12,059 nt of DNA from a virus (Duplodnaviria > Heunggongvirae > Uroviricota > Caudoviricetes): IMG/VR virus record IMGVR_UViG_2713896791_000029, one strand, 5' to 3'. The translations under genes were made by a program, and so were the position numbers. The notes beneath the pieces are model-generated. The model had not been told where the DNA came from and made no database searches. It saw only the letters and a list, made by a program, of their open reading frames with translations. How positions within the stretch are numbered: the stretch's first letter is position 1; each line of letters opens with the position of its first letter. Below are positions 1-6,679 of this stretch, one piece after another.

Positions 1-1461
1 ATGAAAAAATTACTGCGTCTTTTTTTCCCGCTCTCACTGCGGGTACGTTTTCTGTTGGCAACGGCTGCGGTAGTACTGGTGCTTTCGCTTGCCTACGGAA
101 TGGTCGCGCTGATCGGTTATAGCGTCAGTTTCGATAAAACTACGTTTCGGCTGTTACGTGGCGAGAGCAATCTGTTCTATACCCTTGCGAAGTGGGAAAA
201 CAATAAGTTGCATGTCGAGTTACCCGAAAATATCGACAAGCAAAGCCCCACCATGACGCTAATTTATGATGAGAACGGGCAGCTTTTATGGGCGCAACGT
301 GACGTGCCCTGGCTGATGAAGATGATCCAGCCTGACTGGCTGAAATCGAATGGTTTTCATGAAATTGAAGCGGATGTTAACGATACCAGCCTCTTGCTAA
401 GTGGAGATCATTCGATACAGCAACAGTTGCAGGAAGTGCGGGAAGATGATGACGACGCGGAGATGACCCACTCGGTGGCAGTAAACGTCTACCCGGCAAC
501 ATCGCGGATGCCAAAATTAACCTTTGTGGTGGTGGATACCATTCCGGTGGAGCTAAAAAGTTCCTATATGGTCTGGAGCTGGTTTATCTATGTGCTCTCA
601 GCCAATCTGCTGTTAGTGATCCCGCTGCTGTGGGTCGCCGCCTGGTGGAGTTTACGCCCCATCGAAGCCCTGGCAAAAGAAGTCCGCGAACTAGAAGAAC
701 ATAACCGCGAATTGCTCAATCCAGCCACAACGCGAGAACTGACCAGTCTGGTACGAAACCTGAACCGATTGTTAAAAAGTGAACGCGAACGTTACGACAA
801 ATACCGTACGACGCTCACCGACCTGACCCATAGTCTGAAAACGCCACTGGCGGTGCTGCAAAGTACGCTGCGTTCTCTGCGTAGTGAAAAGATGAGCGTC
901 AGTGATGCTGAGCCGGTAATGCTGGAGCAAATCAGCCGCATTTCACAGCAAATTGGCTACTACCTGCATCGTGCCAGTATGCGCGGCGGGACATTGCTCA
1001 GCCGCGAGCTGCATCCGGTCGCCCCACTGCTGGACAATCTCACCTCAGCGCTGAACAAAGTGTATCAACGCAAAGGGGTCAATATCTCTCTCGATATTTC
1101 GCCAGAGATCAGCTTTGTCGGTGAGCAGAACGATTTTGTCGAGGTGATGGGCAACGTGCTGGATAATGCCTGTAAATATTGCCTCGAGTTTGTCGAAATT
1201 TCTGCAAGGCAAACCGACGAGCATCTCTATATTGTGGTCGAGGATGATGGCCCCGGTATTCCATTAAGCAAGCGAGAGGTCATTTTCGACCGTGGTCAAC
1301 GGGTTGATACTTTACGCCCTGGGCAAGGTGTAGGGCTGGCGGTAGCCCGCGAAATCACCGAGCAATATGAGGGTAAAATCGTCGCCGGAGAGAGCATGCT
1401 GGGCGGTGCGCGGATGGAGGTGATTTTTGGTCGCCAGCATTCTGCGCCGAAAGATGAATAA
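1..1461 (+). CDS. phoQ: Sensor histidine kinase PhoQ, complete (486 aa)
   Basis: Full-length ORF with N-terminal transmembrane segment, periplasmic acidic patch ([10 protein letters not shown]), second TM/HAMP region, H-box ([12 protein letters not shown]) and HATPase motifs ([24 protein letters not shown]). The translation is recognisable as E. coli-type PhoQ, including the C-terminus ...[10 protein letters not shown]. Confidence 0.95.
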
Positions 1462-2062: not shown

Positions 2063-2344
2063 TTACCGCCGCAGCCGTTCCGGCTTCTTCCAGTGGTACG
2101 TTATTTTTTCTTTCTCCCGATACAGTTCAACGCGGCGATTGTAGGCCAGCATTTCAAGAACGCGGTTCCGTATGTTGCGCATATCAACGCCATTAAGTTC
2201 TATACCATCACGGCGCATCACTTCCGCTACAACACGCACATAATTTTCAGCGGTCACGCTGTCCGGCTGTGTGGCCTGTTCGTCATGCTGCTGGCTGATT
2301 CCGGCGACGCGGCGGATTAATCCCAGTAGTTCGGCTTCTGTCAT
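2063..2344 (-). CDS. Hypothetical protein (93 aa), last gene before the island's left junction
   Basis: ORF with GGGGG Shine-Dalgarno about 5 nt upstream of the ATG. No motif I recognise. Confidence 0.45.
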   Translation of the reverse strand: MTEAELLGLIRRVAGISQQHDEQATQPDSVTAENYVRVVAEVMRRDGIELNGVDMRNIRNRVLEMLAYNRRVELYREKEKITYHWKKPERLRR

Positions 2345-2401: not shown

Positions 2402-2580
2402 CGTTACGGGGCGGCGACCTCGCGGTTTTTATCTGTTTATGAGAATTTTCCGGCAAAAGTCAGATCCGCTCTTCTTCTCTGTAACAGACTGTTTAACAAT
2501 GAAAATATTAAAAAAAGAAAGGATCTGACACGAGGCATTTTAGCCAGAAAATGCCATTATCAGATCCTTTCTCATTTTTG
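2402..2580 (+). other. Lambda-type cos site: cosN (GTTACG/GGGCGGCGACCT/CGCGG, overhang at 2408-2419) plus cosB-like R3/I1/R2/R1 region
   Basis: Close to collinear with the remembered left end of lambda (GGGCGGCGACCTCGCGG...TTTATGA.AATTTTCCGG...TCTTCTTC...AAAGAAAGGA...CCTTTCTC..TTTTTGT). R-element cores read CAGATCC at 2460-2466 and 2560-2566, and inverted as GGATCTG at 2520-2526, where lambda has CGTTTCC. An AT-rich I1-like segment lies between R3 and R2. Confidence 0.8.
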
Positions 2581-2599: not shown

Positions 2600-3142
2600 T
2601 TACTCGCCTTTCTTCTGTAGCAACTTTTCCGGTACGTTTCCGGTTGTTTCTTTCAAGTAATCAGCCAGTATCTGTGGGAGGTTGTCGGCAACTCTGGCAC
2701 TGGCATTACAGACTTTAACCACTTCCCTTTTAAGCCTGTCCAGCATGGCGGGGGTAATCTGTGGGAAGCTCCTTTGCATAGTAAGCGGGAGGATGTCCAT
2801 GATTGATGAAATCTGACTCGCCAGCTTTGAAAGCGCGTACAGGCAAAACTCAGTATCAATCACGTCACCGCGATCGCGATCGTTTTTAAGTTCCTGCGCC
2901 TCTGCCTGTGCTGTCAGTAATCTGATCCTGACTCGTAAAAGTTCATCATCGTCAATCTCGCCTTTGTCGTTTATAAGCTGGCTAATTGCATTGTTAACCC
3001 TATTTTCTATCACGCTGGCAACATCATAAAACGCCTCACGGCCTTTACGCTCAACGGGAGTTACTCCCCACTTGTCGAACGCTGTCGCACTTACACGGCA
3101 GCTTTTCGCCATGTTTTTTTTGTTCATCAGATGAGATTTCAT
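2600..3142 (-). CDS. Small terminase subunit, lambda Nu1-like (180 aa)
   Basis: The C-terminal two-thirds align with lambda Nu1 (LTAQAEAQELKNDRD...DTEFCLYALSKLASQISSIMDILPLTMQRSFP versus Nu1 LTRAQADAQELKNARD...ETAFCTFVLSRIAGEIASILDGLPLSVQRRFP). The N-terminal wHTH region has the same spacing with conserved NKK...A...S...W and EAFYDVASVI (Nu1: EVLYDSAAVI) but different intervening residues. Start codon choice is uncertain; the ATG at 3142 has only a weak Shine-Dalgarno. Confidence 0.85.
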   Translation of the reverse strand: MKSHLMNKKNMAKSCRVSATAFDKWGVTPVERKGREAFYDVASVIENRVNNAISQLINDKGEIDDDELLRVRIRLLTAQAEAQELKNDRDRGDVIDTEFCLYALSKLASQISSIMDILPLTMQRSFPQITPAMLDRLKREVVKVCNASARVADNLPQILADYLKETTGNVPEKLLQKKGE

Positions 3143-3181: not shown

Positions 3182-3317
3182 GCTTGCATCTTTCCCTTTT
3201 CATTCATAAAGATAGATCAAACAACAAAACCACCACCACCCCCCTGAAAAGGCTCATAAATAGCGAAAATCCGCGAGGTCTCCGCCCCGTAACAGGTCCA
3301 TATGCCGGAAAGGACCC

Positions 3318-3342
3318 GCAAAAAAGCCGGATTTCTCCGGCC
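3318..3342 (-). terminator. Intrinsic terminator (copy a): GCCGGA-loop-TCCGGC followed by U6 on the - strand
   Basis: A6 + GCCGGA tttc TCCGGC on the + strand, so hairpin then U-run on the - strand. Sits 5 nt after the stop of the 137-aa gene. Confidence 0.5.
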
Positions 3343-3347
3343 TTGTC

Positions 3348-3761
3348 TCAGATGGTTTTCAGTATGCGATCGATGTCGCCGTCATCGCCCGGGTTTCTGC
3401 CATCGTATGCCATGCCAGCTGATACGGCTTGTGGGCTGTGCATGTCCATAAAGTTTTCAAAGGCTGCGGTAAGCTCTGGTGCAACCTTCGGGCGTTCCTG
3501 CTCTATGGTCATGTTCAGGATGTTTTTAGCCGTATCAACATCAATACAAGGCACGTTTGCCATTGCACGTAACAGCGGCTGATAGTCGTCAGATTCATGA
3601 AGCGCCATAATCGCATCAGCGCGCGGCTTGTCCTTCTCTTCCAGGCTGTTAAGTTGATATACGGCCTCGTAGGTTGATAAACCTCTGTCAGCCATTGCCC
3701 GCGCTTCGGCTTTAAATTTACTCGCCAGCGGTAGCGTCATGATACTTTCATTCGTTGCCAT
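3348..3761 (-). CDS. Hypothetical acidic protein (137 aa) between the decoration gene and terS
   Basis: AGGGGG Shine-Dalgarno 4 nt upstream of the ATG, 12 nt after the stop of the gpD-like gene. Acidic and predicted helical. No motif I recognise; a scaffold or packaging accessory role is only a guess. Confidence 0.6.
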   Translation of the reverse strand: MATNESIMTLPLASKFKAEARAMADRGLSTYEAVYQLNSLEEKDKPRADAIMALHESDDYQPLLRAMANVPCIDVDTAKNILNMTIEQERPKVAPELTAAFENFMDMHSPQAVSAGMAYDGRNPGDDGDIDRILKTI

Positions 3762-3773
3762 CGTTCCCCCTGC

Positions 3774-4109
3774 TTATCGCGCCAGCGGCTGAACGGATAC
3801 GCCAGAACCCGCAAAGGCGGCGCATTTTTTCGCGTCGGTGTCGGCGCTCTCAGGCCAGTTAACGGCGGCAATATTGAATATCCCCGTCTTGTAGCACTGT
3901 GCTGATTTCTGCGTCGACGTGTCCACGGGGTACGAGGTCAGATAAACAGCCTTGCCAGATTCCTGACCATCCCACGGCTTAAACTCGCCATTTTCCGCCA
4001 GCATCAGCGGGGTAAATTCCTGAATAACGCCAGCATCAGCAGCAAAATGTACCAGCGTCGTGGATACCTGCTGACTACCTGCAAATAACTCAATGTATGG
4101 AGTGTCCAT
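3774..4109 (-). CDS. Head decoration protein, lambda gpD-like (111 aa)
   Basis: Aligns with remembered lambda gpD: FTPLMLAENGEFKPWDG...DTSTQKSAQCYKTGIF...WPESADTDAKKCAAFAGSGVSV versus TPLMLDTSSRKLVAWDG...DQTSTTLTFYKSGTF...[29 protein letters not shown] Shine-Dalgarno immediately after the stop of the capsid gene. Confidence 0.8.
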   Translation of the reverse strand: MDTPYIELFAGSQQVSTTLVHFAADAGVIQEFTPLMLAENGEFKPWDGQESGKAVYLTSYPVDTSTQKSAQCYKTGIFNIAAVNWPESADTDAKKCAAFAGSGVSVQPLAR

Positions 4110-4121
4110 AGAATCCCCCCG

Positions 4122-5177
4122 TTAACCAATTTTGACGGTAACAAATTTGCGAATATCTGCCGGTACCGGCTGCGGTGCGCTGTGCGTCTGCACGTACTCA
4201 ATCGCCGGATCGCCGTCCTCAATCCAGTTTTTCGGGTAAAACATGTTTTGCGTTGCGCCCGTTCTGACCGCTTCCTGATCCATAATCGCACCATAGGCCA
4301 CCAGCCCTTTATTGTTGGTGTTACCCAGGACCAGCAAATCAGGCTCAAGGAAATATTTTTCGGTGCCGTCGCTGTCAGTGTATTTGCCGGAATAGACGAC
4401 AAGGGCAATATCGCCCAGATAGCCTTTAAAGCTCACCACTTCACCCAGGTTTTTACAGGCCAGTTCTGCGGCGGATTCTGAACCACGGGAAAGGTCGTAC
4501 AGTTCGCGGAATTTTTTAAAGCTGCGTAACGTGCGCCATACTTCAGCGCCCATAATCATGACGTTTGCGGGGCAATTGCCCTGATCAGCATAAAGCTCGA
4601 TGTCATAGATTGGATCGTGTGTTTCTTTATCCAGCTCAGACCATTTTTTACCGTCAGCCTGTTCTATGATATTGCTTTCCGGGATCTTCCAGTCGATTTC
4701 ATAGCGTTCTATGCCTTCGCCCTCAATGAGGTTTTTTCCGGTCGTTACCGCATTCACCGCCAGCCATTCCACGCGTGCCTTAATGGCGTTTATCTGGCGG
4801 CGCATGTTGCCAGTAATCAGGCGCATACGGCGATAGGTAGGATCGTTAAGCTGTGCCGGATCTTCTCCAGCCATGCGCATGATGGTTTTTGTTGGATCGA
4901 TTTCGTGTTTGGGTTTCATGTAGCCTGGTTTAATCGTGCTGGTTTCGTACCCTTTATCGCGCTGGACCTGACTACCCACCATAGGCGAACAGAACGCTGA
5001 CATCGTAACCTCTTCAATGTCCAGGGTGTCCAGCATGATGTTCTGGGTGTTGAAGGTCGCCACGTTCGGGAAAAACAGCGTGGTAAACAGCGGACTGAAT
5101 TTAAATTCTGCAATATCCCCGCGATTCAGGTACGCGAAAAGCTGGTTAGTGTTAAGTGCCGTTGCTTTGCCTGCCAT
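4122..5177 (-). CDS. Major capsid protein, lambda gpE-like (351 aa)
   Basis: Multiple blocks shared with remembered lambda gpE: EFKFSPLF..LFF, PGYMKPKHEI, DPTYRRMRLI, DKETHDPIYDIELYA, FKGYLGDIALVVYSGKY, VLGNTNNKGL.AYGAI.D, YPKNWIEDGDPA.E....SAP. GGAGGTG Shine-Dalgarno; the stop of the upstream gene overlaps the start (TAATG). Confidence 0.9.
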   Translation of the reverse strand: MAGKATALNTNQLFAYLNRGDIAEFKFSPLFTTLFFPNVATFNTQNIMLDTLDIEEVTMSAFCSPMVGSQVQRDKGYETSTIKPGYMKPKHEIDPTKTIMRMAGEDPAQLNDPTYRRMRLITGNMRRQINAIKARVEWLAVNAVTTGKNLIEGEGIERYEIDWKIPESNIIEQADGKKWSELDKETHDPIYDIELYADQGNCPANVMIMGAEVWRTLRSFKKFRELYDLSRGSESAAELACKNLGEVVSFKGYLGDIALVVYSGKYTDSDGTEKYFLEPDLLVLGNTNNKGLVAYGAIMDQEAVRTGATQNMFYPKNWIEDGDPAIEYVQTHSAPQPVPADIRKFVTVKIG

Positions 5178-5383
5178 TATTCACCTCCATGCGTCTGATT
5201 CATGCCCAGCGCCGCGCGTAAATAGGCGCGGACCTGCCAGCCTGTTGACGGCTCAACCATCGCCAGCGGATCAAGTCCTGCCGCAATGCCTGCTTTTACG
5301 TTCTGCCGGTGGCGTTCCTTGAGCGCCTTCACGATGTCGGGGCTTATGTACACCGAAACACCGCCTTTTTTCTCTTCAGCCAT
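5177..5383 (-). CDS. Hypothetical small protein (68 aa), first gene of the head operon; possible ribbon-helix-helix-like fold
   Basis: Translationally coupled to the capsid gene. The N-terminus GGVSVYISPDIVKALKERH resembles a beta-strand plus helix RHH motif, but this is weak. Confidence 0.5.
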   Translation of the reverse strand: MAEEKKGGVSVYISPDIVKALKERHRQNVKAGIAAGLDPLAMVEPSTGWQVRAYLRAALGMNQTHGGE

Positions 5384-5417
5384 AGTAAGAAATTCCTCTT
5401 CGACTTAAAAAATCATA

Positions 5418-5468
5418 ACTGGATGTTTATCCAGTCCTGATTATAATCAGAATTGCATTTTATGCAAT
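5418..5468 (-). promoter_or_regulatory. Three adjacent palindromes overlapping a sigma70-like promoter for the head operon
   Basis: ACTGGAT-gttt-ATCCAGT (5418-5435), perfect 14-bp palindrome CTGATTATAATCAG (5437-5450, contains TATAAT), and ATTGCAT-ttt-ATGCAAT (5452-5468, contains a TTGCAT -35-like hexamer on the - strand). About 35-85 bp upstream of the 68-aa gene. Confidence 0.5.
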
Positions 5469-5634: not shown

Positions 5635-5859
5635 TCAGTCTCTGATCTCTTTCAGAAATTCTATCAATGCATCTATCTGTTCAGGATTTACCGCCAGCAT
5701 TTCACCGGATAGAGCACATCTCACAAAACCATGCTGATCCTTTTCAATCAGTGCGCCCGTCTCCAGGAATGCGCGGTAATCATTGATGCTCATCGTCTCC
5801 ATGTTGTCAGCATGGTATTTATCACGCTGTTTTAATATCTCATCAAATTTCATCGGCAT
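5635..5859 (-). CDS. Hypothetical protein (74 aa)
   Basis: AGAGGAAA Shine-Dalgarno upstream of the ATG; followed by tandem terminators. No motif I recognise. Confidence 0.5.
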   Translation of the reverse strand: MPMKFDEILKQRDKYHADNMETMSINDYRAFLETGALIEKDQHGFVRCALSGEMLAVNPEQIDALIEFLKEIRD

Positions 5860-5985: not shown

Positions 5986-6258
5986 TTAGCTGTCCTGGTA
6001 ATTGCGCCATATTTCATCACCAGCACCATCTATACCCATTTCGGCATAAGTGCGATCGACTGCCTTTTTCAGGTCTCCGAAATTATCCGGCGGCTCCGGT
6101 GCCCTCTGTGCCTTCCTTGAACATTCCAGCCGTCGCATCGTGATGTGATGCCGTTCCTTGTCTGTCTCCACCAGCTGCATGACTTCACCCCATCGCGCCG
6201 CCGCCCTCCGGTAAAAGCCTTTCGCCTCCAGTTCCTCCGCTATGCGGTCATGTACCAT
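5986..6258 (-). CDS. PerC-family-like transcriptional regulator (90 aa)
   Basis: Start placed at the ATG at 6258, which has a GAGGGGGTG Shine-Dalgarno directly after the SSB stop; the longer 130-aa ORF would overlap the SSB gene. The motif AEELEAKGFYRRAAARWGEV resembles the conserved N-terminal signature I recall for PerC/Pch regulators. Family assignment is from memory, not a search. Confidence 0.5.
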   Translation of the reverse strand: MVHDRIAEELEAKGFYRRAAARWGEVMQLVETDKERHHITMRRLECSRKAQRAPEPPDNFGDLKKAVDRTYAEMGIDGAGDEIWRNYQDS

Positions 6259-6268
6259 CGTCACCCCC

Positions 6269-6679
6269 TCAGAACGAAATATCATCACCGTAAGGGTCAT
6301 CGCCTCCCGCTGGTGGCTGATTACCCTGTGTGCCTGTGGTTTTGCGTCTGTTCCCGCCTGGACGTGCCGCGCGGGCACTGATTACGCTGTCTGCGATAAC
6401 CTGCCAGCCCTGCCGCGTTTCTCCGTTCTGTCCGGTCCACTGGCTTACCTGCATCGTGCCGGATACGCTGGCAACATCGCCTTTTTGATGTTTAGCCAGG
6501 AAGTCGGCCTGTTTGCCAAATGCGATGACCGATAACCATAACGTCGCCTGTCCGTCCTGTGCCTGGCTGCATGGCAAAGATACCGCCATACGCGCCAGCG
6601 TCATCGGTGTGCCCTTGCTGGTCTGTTTTACCTGCGGGTCGTCCACCAGCCGCCCGTAAGCGGCTATCTGTGCCGTCAT
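6269..6679 (-). CDS. Single-stranded DNA-binding protein (SSB-like, 136 aa)
   Basis: OB-fold core aligns with E. coli SSB (LWLSVIAFGKQADFLAKHQKGDVASVSGTMQVSQWTGQNGETRQGWQVIA versus [50 protein letters not shown]). Gly/Pro-rich linker and acidic C-terminal tail ...GDDISF (SSB: DDDIPF). ATGA overlap with the upstream gene. Confidence 0.8.
   Translation of the reverse strand: MTAQIAAYGRLVDDPQVKQTSKGTPMTLARMAVSLPCSQAQDGQATLWLSVIAFGKQADFLAKHQKGDVASVSGTMQVSQWTGQNGETRQGWQVIADSVISARAARPGGNRRKTTGTQGNQPPAGGDDPYGDDISF

Follow-up and report, generated by a model that had tools for sequence, protein, structure and literature searches.

Why classical phage-inducible chromosomal islands (PICIs) in Escherichia coli keep capsid genes is an acknowledged puzzle, and the locus described here adds a narrower question, namely what two small genes on either side of such capsid genes encode. 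The locus lies in a 12,059-nucleotide stretch of DNA (hereafter the window; IMG/VR record IMGVR_UViG_2713896791_000029) that runs from the end of phoQ into an island of ~11 kb in which every gene is on the minus strand. The small genes, for proteins of 68 and 137 amino acids, are the first and the last of a four-gene operon on that strand; between them are genes for a capsid protein similar to gpE of phage lambda and a decoration protein similar to gpD (Table 1). The first-pass annotation located both open reading frames (ORFs) correctly and proposed that they encode unrecognizable assembly or interference factors. The island was known before and both genes had been catalogued; what is new, and solid as far as sequence comparison goes, is that the 137-aa protein belongs to the Nu3/gpC scaffolding domain family, in a truncated and stand-alone form. 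With a Nu3-type scaffold recognized, an unexplained capsid homologue would become part of a coherent, co-inherited set in which scaffold, shell, and cement are all present and only portal and protease are missing, and this re-annotation makes the puzzle of the capsid genes testable.

The 137-aa protein belongs to phrog_1999 (function unknown) and matches the far C-terminal end of phrog_53, the lambda-type head maturation proteases (positions 494-567 of 583, E = 6.7e-9). Reciprocally, residues 117-200 of lambda Nu3 match phrog_1999 (E = 2.7e-26), as does lambda gpC. The profile of the 137-aa family matched the C-termini of S49 peptidases and entries named "scaffolding protein" from Salmonella and E. 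coli prophages at E-values of 1e-25 to 1e-15, and a hidden Markov model (HMM) made from the island proteins alone recovered gpC of the lambdoid prophage of E. coli CFT073 in three repeat registers. Identity to this gpC is 36% across the final 80 residues (BLASTP, E = 6e-10). When we searched 1.8 billion representative proteins with phmmer we found only eight relatives. One of them, P0072 (195 aa, E = 2.7e-6), has three copies of the repeat IMxLxEAxGRExLAxxLAxxPGMxxxQAxxLL and is considered Nu3-like because it matches lambda Nu3 at 2e-16. Searching 50,697 phage records (INPHARED) by tblastn gave no homologue of the 137-aa protein, and HMMs of the 68-aa and 137-aa families found nothing further when run against the head regions of lambda and the CFT073 prophage. 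The 137-aa protein is almost certainly homologous to Nu3 and, judged by its sequence, is the scaffolding module of lambda-type gpC/Nu3 detached from the protease. That neither small protein is recognizable, as was first stated, holds for the 68-aa protein, which has no significant homologue, but not for the 137-aa protein with its homology to the gpC/Nu3 C-terminus.

The homology covers the last ~85-130 residues of lambda gpNu3/gpC and of the versions in Gifsy-like and E. coli lambdoid prophages, to which the island protein is 21-36% identical. Common to both are an IMxLxE...LAxxPxxxxxxAxxxL helical repeat, an FExFM..HSP..V..G motif, an acidic tail, and an amphipathic helix at the end. The multiple alignment is collinear through two repeats, the FExFM..HSP motif, the acidic stretch, and the terminal amphipathic segment. 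The conserved motif (FExFMxxHSPxAV) reads AAFENFMDMHSPQAVSAG in the island protein and AFDQFMQxHSPxxVSGG in phages, and the terminal segment is DIDRILKTI in the island compared to VNDLLNTPV in lambda. The proteins differ in length, with 137 aa and two repeats in the island, 201 aa in Nu3, and ~500 aa with three repeats in the closest gpC proteins. In self-alignment the island repeat is weak, with a score of 29 versus 18.7 +/- 3.8 for shuffled sequences and 39 of 2000 shuffles reaching 29. We accept it only because it can be aligned with the clear repeats in Nu3-like proteins and because natural in-frame variants of 93 aa (P0028-P0030) lack exactly one 44-residue unit, the junction being at a repeated RAMA motif.

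The AlphaFold2 model of the 137-aa protein is confidently helical, being all-helical to residue 107 with block-mean predicted local distance difference test (pLDDT) values above 90 for residues 11-80 and of 81-82 for residues 1-10 and 81-90. The tail is disordered (pLDDT <50 at residues 111-126) and is followed by a terminal helix at 128-135. The protein is acidic, as first annotated, with an isoelectric point (pI) of 4.6 (23 D+E versus 14 K+R) that is close to the pI of 4.5 of lambda Nu3. By pI and model it is therefore acidic, α-helical, and flexible at its C-terminal end, as expected of a scaffold. It does not start at an internal in-frame codon within a protease gene C; the gene stands alone with its own Shine-Dalgarno sequence, and profile scans and annotation revealed no S49 peptidase anywhere in the island. 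Because it is not nested in a protease gene, we call the protein Nu3-like rather than a Nu3.

The operon of lambda Nu3 and that of the 137-aa protein each include genes for E-type and D-type proteins. The analogy of position to lambda drawn in the first-pass annotation is loose, since the order is 68aa-E-D-137aa in the island and C/Nu3-D-E-FI-FII in lambda, with the 137-aa gene downstream of D and C/Nu3 upstream of it. The comparison of the 137-aa protein to FI/FII was not borne out, as it resembles neither (E = 0.85 against FI, which is 132 aa long, and no FI/FII similarity in Pfam/PHROG scans). Likewise, the 68-aa protein, which had been compared to Nu3/C, has no lambda counterpart; it did not align to W (68 aa) either. 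A role in assembly is thus supported by scaffold homology for the 137-aa protein, and the 68-aa protein remains unassigned.

Two island lineages that we compared have capsid and decoration proteins that are ~90% identical and 137-aa proteins that are only 38-40% identical. The second lineage has lost the FExFM motif and kept the last ten residues (DxDxI[DE]RILKTI). Because of this retention, the sequences point to the terminal helix as the invariant working end of the protein. In other scaffolds, including P22 gp8, phi29 gp7, 80alpha gp46, and SaPI1 CpmB, a C-terminal helix binds the coat protein, and by inference we liken the arrangement in the 137-aa protein to these. In the Pluralibacter island (L007/L008 8639-9449) the decoration gene is followed not by a gene for a protein of 134 or 137 aa but by genes for proteins of 77 and 139 aa, and then by a weak Lambda_tail_I match.

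Many members of the 137-aa cluster have carried the NCBI name "head-tail connector", and this name is the one point in favor of an adaptor function, of the HK97 gp6 or SPP1 gp15 type, for the protein. Pfam and NCBIfam scans of the protein gave no match at E <=0.1, connector families included, the predicted fold lends no support, PHROG groups the protein with protease/scaffold C-termini, and the current RefSeq name is hypothetical protein. A connector function is effectively refuted, the name is misleading, and the present assignment corrects it.

The 68-aa ORF has a Shine-Dalgarno sequence (AAGAGG) 8 nt 5' of its ATG, and its TAA stop codon has one base in common with the ATG of the capsid gene (ggaggtgaTAATGgca). 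Because the stop and start share this base, the ribosome-binding site of the capsid gene (GGAGGTGA) is inside the 68-aa ORF. The translational coupling that had been proposed upstream of the capsid gene is therefore a true overlap. Coupling of the 137-aa gene to the decoration gene had also been proposed; the spacing is tight, with the start 12 nt past the decoration-gene stop and AGGGGGA in front of it, but there is no overlap. An RNA fold of the 39 nt around the terminator that closes the operon (3312-3350) has an energy of -14.5 kcal/mol.

We compared 80 related IMG/VR contigs, most of them island-sized, of which 70 could be scored for the 137-aa ORF. The order of the four genes is invariant in all 80 and also in other island lineages, whose integrases and replicases differ. 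The overlap between the 68-aa stop and the capsid start could be checked in all 80 contigs and is invariant as well. The 68-aa ORF is intact in 80/80 loci, the capsid gene in 77/80, and the 137-aa ORF in 64/70. Measured against the orthologues in CFT073, in a second E. coli island lineage, and in the Pluralibacter island, ratios of nonsynonymous to synonymous substitution (dN/dS) were 0.10-0.27 for the small genes and 0.06-0.22 for the capsid and decoration genes at dS >1. Of 5426 complete E. coli genomes, 598 (approximately one in nine) gave a near-identity DNA match to the block, which is nearly full-length in 592. Low dN/dS, intactness across loci, and spread in E. coli demonstrate that both small ORFs are real genes under purifying selection rather than chance ORFs.

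These data also bear on the idea that the cassette is what remains of a prophage, in decay and now functionless. This idea draws on the lack of a phenotype for the capsid and decoration genes in a relative of the island, on the replaceability of the cassette by cargo, and on occasional pseudogenes. A remnant would not be expected to show dN/dS values of 0.06-0.27 over dS >1 or to be intact in ~90-100% of loci and present in 592 complete genomes. Nor would it be expected to keep a conserved regulatory region or to persist, as the four-gene module does, in island lineages with different integrases and replicases and also in Salmonella and Pluralibacter. We regard decay as very unlikely.

The capsid protein shares 44% identity with lambda E; between the decoration protein and lambda D identity is 38%. 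Against the INPHARED records the island capsid protein reached at most ~47% identity, with Gifsy-1 (46%) the best, and by sequence it is a satellite-specific lineage. Since it is less than 50% identical to any phage capsid protein, it would therefore need partners of its own. Neither a portal nor a protease is encoded in the island according to ORF and profile annotation. The module as a whole is an old lineage specific to satellites, with components that presumably fit one another and not those of the helper.

Satellites with related strategies are known, and our comparison with two of them, SaPI1 and SaPIbov5, rests on published descriptions. The closest system in mechanism is CpmB of SaPI1, a small helical satellite protein that shares its C-terminus with the scaffold gp46 of the helper 80alpha; a second parallel is Ccm of SaPIbov5, a capsid-protein homologue such as this island has. 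No sequence relationship links CpmB or Ccm to the island proteins, and only the island has scaffold, capsid, and decoration homologues together. CpmB redirects capsid size, whereas EcCICFT073, a relative of the window island, is packaged in full-size lambda capsids. Capsid-forming PICIs (cf-PICIs) such as EcCIEDL933 resemble the island in joining capsid genes of their own to an E. coli PICI backbone (int, alpA, replication module). However, cf-PICIs build HK97-type capsids, and their genes additionally include those for portal, protease, head-tail connectors, HNH, and both terminase subunits; the capsid-related set of the island, as known from its genes, is limited to scaffold, shell, cement, and a Nu1-like small terminase subunit (TerS).

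The best explanation overall, which we consider probable, is that the operon is a four-gene satellite shell kit comprised of the 137-aa scaffold, the capsid protein, the decoration protein as cement, and the 68-aa protein. From the homology, operon structure, conservation, and purifying selection we infer the binding partners and the biological benefit as follows. The 137-aa protein combines two ~44-residue helical repeats, the FExFMxxHSPxAV motif, and a floppy acidic tail with a short terminal helix, and it has no protease domain. The repeats would self-associate or pair with Nu3/gpC of the helper phage, and the C-terminal helix would bind the diverged capsid protein of the island. In doing so, the scaffold would chaperone and nucleate island-type shells on a portal-protease initiator supplied by the helper, and the D-like protein would then cement the shell. 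That the 137-aa protein serves as a scaffold for the island's own capsid protein is likewise probable. A further step, in which the right lambdoid helper (not lambda or phi80) would allow the cassette to build satellite-specific and possibly smaller capsids on a stolen portal-protease initiator, is tentative. If it proved true, these very common islands would stand, in evolution and in mechanism, between classical PICIs, which take over entire capsids, and cf-PICIs, which take only the tails.

Several results count against the shell kit. Most come from EcCICFT073, where the orthologues are ~95% identical. Deletion of c1499 or c1500, the capsid and decoration genes, left interference with lambda and transfer by the resident prophage unchanged, the authors stated that they found no phenotype for c1499, and the DNA packaged with lambda as helper was phage-sized (PMC6092414). 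The segment c1498-c1501 has been swapped for cas9 or melA and phi80 still mobilized the islands (PMC10530653, PMC10460865). Among the related loci, the 137-aa gene is broken or deleted in 6/70 and the capsid gene in 3/80. The cassette is thus dispensable for mobilization by lambda and phi80 and therefore probably matters only with other helpers or conditions; the published tests cover lambda, phi80, and the resident prophage as helpers. The finding is not surprising in kind, and the existing data contain no phenotype with standard helpers. The role of the kit may be helper-specific. The laboratory by which these islands were defined regards the block as a slot available for cargo, and engineered PICIs without c1498-c1501 may behave differently with non-laboratory helpers.

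Some details of these loci and constructs are worth recording. The 137-aa gene is frameshifted, truncated, or largely deleted in loci L013, L026, L037, L042, L053, and L075, and a few islands (L004, L008) have a split capsid gene. We considered whether the widely used "c1501::tetA" marker disrupts the scaffold gene and rejected this, as the primers put tetA immediately after the c1501 stop codon and leave the gene intact. Our search of the accessible literature found no paper that assigns a function to c1501 or c1498 or that notes the relationship to Nu3.

The published experiments speak against a rival in which the 137-aa protein is a competing mini-Nu3 that, perhaps with the 68-aa protein, acts mainly on the helper by competing for its capsid protein, portal, or protease, resulting either in capsid-size redirection of the kind caused by SaPI1 CpmB or in sabotaged helper heads. 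The repeat, FExFM..HSP motif, and terminal helix are common to the 137-aa protein and to gpC/Nu3 of lambdoid prophages, including that of CFT073. Moreover, lambda Nu3 is reported to bind B, C, and E as well as itself (PMC3224144), there are precedents in CpmB, Sid, TcaP, and Ccm, and by our own estimate a smaller capsid would suit an 11-kb island. However, when the post-ori genes of EcCICFT073 were expressed one at a time from pBAD18, c1503 (RppA) was the only one to block lambda, giving fewer plaques (PMC6739421). In addition, no small-genome DNA band was seen with lambda, phi80 mobilizes islands without the cassette, and the island's own diverged capsid protein is the obvious cognate partner for the scaffold. 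The first-pass proposal of interference factors is thus contradicted for lambda, the data also speak against it for phi80, and we consider competition with helper assembly improbable.

The 68-aa protein is harder to place. It is basic (pI 9.2) and belongs to phrog_3255, a family of unknown function. We found nothing significant in Pfam, NCBIfam, PADLOC, or PDB searches, nothing by tblastn against the phage records, no similarity to the head regions of lambda and the CFT073 prophage, and no neighbor in a structural search with the predicted model. Its homologues are confined to related islands of E. coli, Salmonella, and Pluralibacter, where they take the same place. The model contains a β-hairpin and two helices (pLDDT 73), and the most conserved stretch of the protein is the N-terminal KKGGVSVYISPDI (GGVSVYISPDI). 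In ribbon-helix-helix (RHH) proteins the N-terminal strand is the DNA-reading strand. The 68-aa protein has in common with RHH proteins (CopG/Arc/MetJ) its small size, palindromes upstream of the gene, and two helices that come after an N-terminal strand (VSVYIS); it differs in an inter-helix loop that is ~12 residues longer than usual. Sub-threshold RHH_1/BrnA matches were obtained at residues 9-25 in 7 of 16 family members.

There are hints here of a small RHH-like DNA-binding dimer, a prediction that we rank slightly above a capsid assembly partner; such a dimer would most likely regulate the operon or late functions of the helper. Two observations speak against it. The RHH matches have E-values of 0.017-0.23, far below Pfam thresholds, and neither a co-varying operator nor a co-varying capsid partner is visible with the two allelic classes of the protein. 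These classes (L065-L089 versus L010-L064) are 69% identical with the same first 15 residues, and both occur on capsid genes that are 93-97% identical and on the same upstream DNA, which implies a recombination boundary at or inside the 68-aa gene. Operator co-variation was set aside as a test of autoregulation because it is uninformative when both alleles share their upstream sequences.

An almost equally likely role is that of an assembly partner specific to the capsid protein, that is a chaperone, second scaffold, or assembly inhibitor, with the 137-aa protein still acting as scaffold. The stop-start overlap with the capsid gene, invariant in the 80 checkable loci, suggests such a partnership, and the basic pI of 9.2 would complement an acidic scaffold. 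By contrast, the divergent alleles pair with nearly constant capsid proteins and show no co-variation, loci with a broken capsid gene still have an intact 68-aa ORF, and the N-terminal strand is the most conserved part, as in RHH DNA readers. An assembly partner is possible but doubtful, and any specific role for the 68-aa protein is at this stage no better than unlikely.

Upstream of the operon are promoter-like and operator-like elements (Table 1). The block formed by the promoter-like site and the palindrome is kept across island lineages with coding dS >1 and across the IMG/VR loci. Between the promoter-like site and the ribosome-binding site of the 68-aa gene is a terminator-like hairpin, for which the leader RNA (5405-5445) has a predicted folding energy of -13.8 kcal/mol (z = -4.7). 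Its CTGGAT/ATCCAG stem is invariant in the listed upstream-region variants of related loci. By sequence the operon seems to have a terminated leader, and expression would depend on antitermination or activation; candidates for this are a Q-type factor of the helper and the product of the adjacent PerC-family gene. If the cassette does build satellite-specific capsids with the right helper, the short leader could be the switch opened by a late regulator of the helper.

The locus is a classical E. coli PICI of the EcCICFT073 type and as such was already known. The window matches the phoQ-roxA region of E. coli O103:H2 str. 12009 and of several other strains with 100% identity, and the element of strain 12009 is listed as a PICI (ECO103_1250, "PICI 1325875-1336965, 11.1 kb") in a supplementary table of Fillol-Salom et al. 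2018 (PMC6092414). On the basis of the annotation of the identical region in strain 12009, the locus has int, an alpA-type regulator, a replication module, a lambda-like cos, a size of ~11 kb, and a specific attachment (att) site, the traits of this type of PICI. EcCICFT073 in E. coli CFT073 has the same phoQ-roxA att site and the same late operon. Its c1498 (68 aa) and c1501 (137 aa) are catalogued in PMC6092414 Table S, where the identity for c1501 is given as 0.942; counting from aligned sequences, we found 65/68 identical residues for c1498 and 130/137 for c1501. The two islands differ in that EcCICFT073 has RppA in the terminase slot and a primase, whereas the window island has a Nu1-like TerS and a RepA-type helicase.

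Table 1. Features of the window in order of position
Feature	Position	Strand	Remarks
phoQ 3' end	1-1461	+	
93-aa protein, phrog_1561	2063-2344	-	after terminase slot; orthologue at same EcCICFT073 position
Second cosN, GGGCGGCGACCTCGCGG	2409-2425	+	perfect match to lambda; pattern search
180-aa Nu1-like small terminase	2600-3142	-	PF07471 E = 4e-22, phrog_57 E = 8e-51
Lambda-like cosN, GGGCGGAGACCTCGCGG	3271-3287	-	corresponds to EcCICFT073 cos1; one mismatch to lambda over 17-nt pattern
Intrinsic terminator closing the operon	3320-3341	-	hairpin GCCGGAGAAATCCGGC then T6
137-aa acidic protein, c1501 orthologue	3348-3761	-	stand-alone, protease-less homologue of gpC/Nu3 C-terminal region
111-aa head decoration protein, lambda gpD family, c1500 orthologue	3774-4109	-	PF02924 E = 1e-17
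351-aa major capsid protein, lambda gpE family, c1499 orthologue	4122-5177	-	PF03864 E = 2e-50
68-aa basic protein, c1498 orthologue	5177-5383	-	first gene of operon; phrog_3255
Terminator-like hairpin and U-run (U6) in 5' leader	5407-5436	-	sequence scan
Promoter-like site	TATAAT 5440-5445, 16-nt spacer, TTGCAT 5462-5467	-	read from sequence
Perfect palindrome, ATTGCATAAAATGCAAT, operator-like	5452-5468	-	overlaps -35 element
74-aa protein, phrog_1957	5635-5859	-	no assigned function
PerC-family regulator	5986-6378	-	upstream of capsid operon, 74-aa gene between
Tyrosine integrase, island end	10830-12059	-	

The two cosN copies are in inverted orientation and flank the Nu1-like terminase gene; none would be expected by chance. 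The minus-strand copy, which we aligned with lambda and EcCICFT073, is downstream of the operon terminator and just upstream of the Nu1-like gene. EcCICFT073 has been reported to have two functional cos sites, cos1 and cos2 (PMC6092414). The slot after cos holds the Nu1-like gene here and rppA (c1503) in EcCICFT073. Among 59 related loci long enough to be assessed, 30 have a Nu1-like gene in this slot, 17 have RppA (e.g. L003 7659-8093), and 12 have neither. Nu1-like and RppA look like alternative packaging-specificity cassettes at one position. The genes for the 93-aa, 74-aa, and PerC-family proteins are conserved in these islands too.

We also considered whether any of the small proteins is a solved Rpp or other solved interference protein, or a component of anti-phage defence, and rejected both ideas: PDB sequence searches with the 68-, 93-, 137-, and 180-aa proteins were empty and there were no PADLOC matches. 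A phage origin of the two small genes was likewise rejected, as tblastn detected neither in the phage records. Two runs of N (7356-7419 and 8429-8478) hide a portion of the RepA-type helicase gene together with sequence immediately upstream of it, and ORF calls around them are unreliable; in strain 12009 the helicase gene is 1401 bp long.

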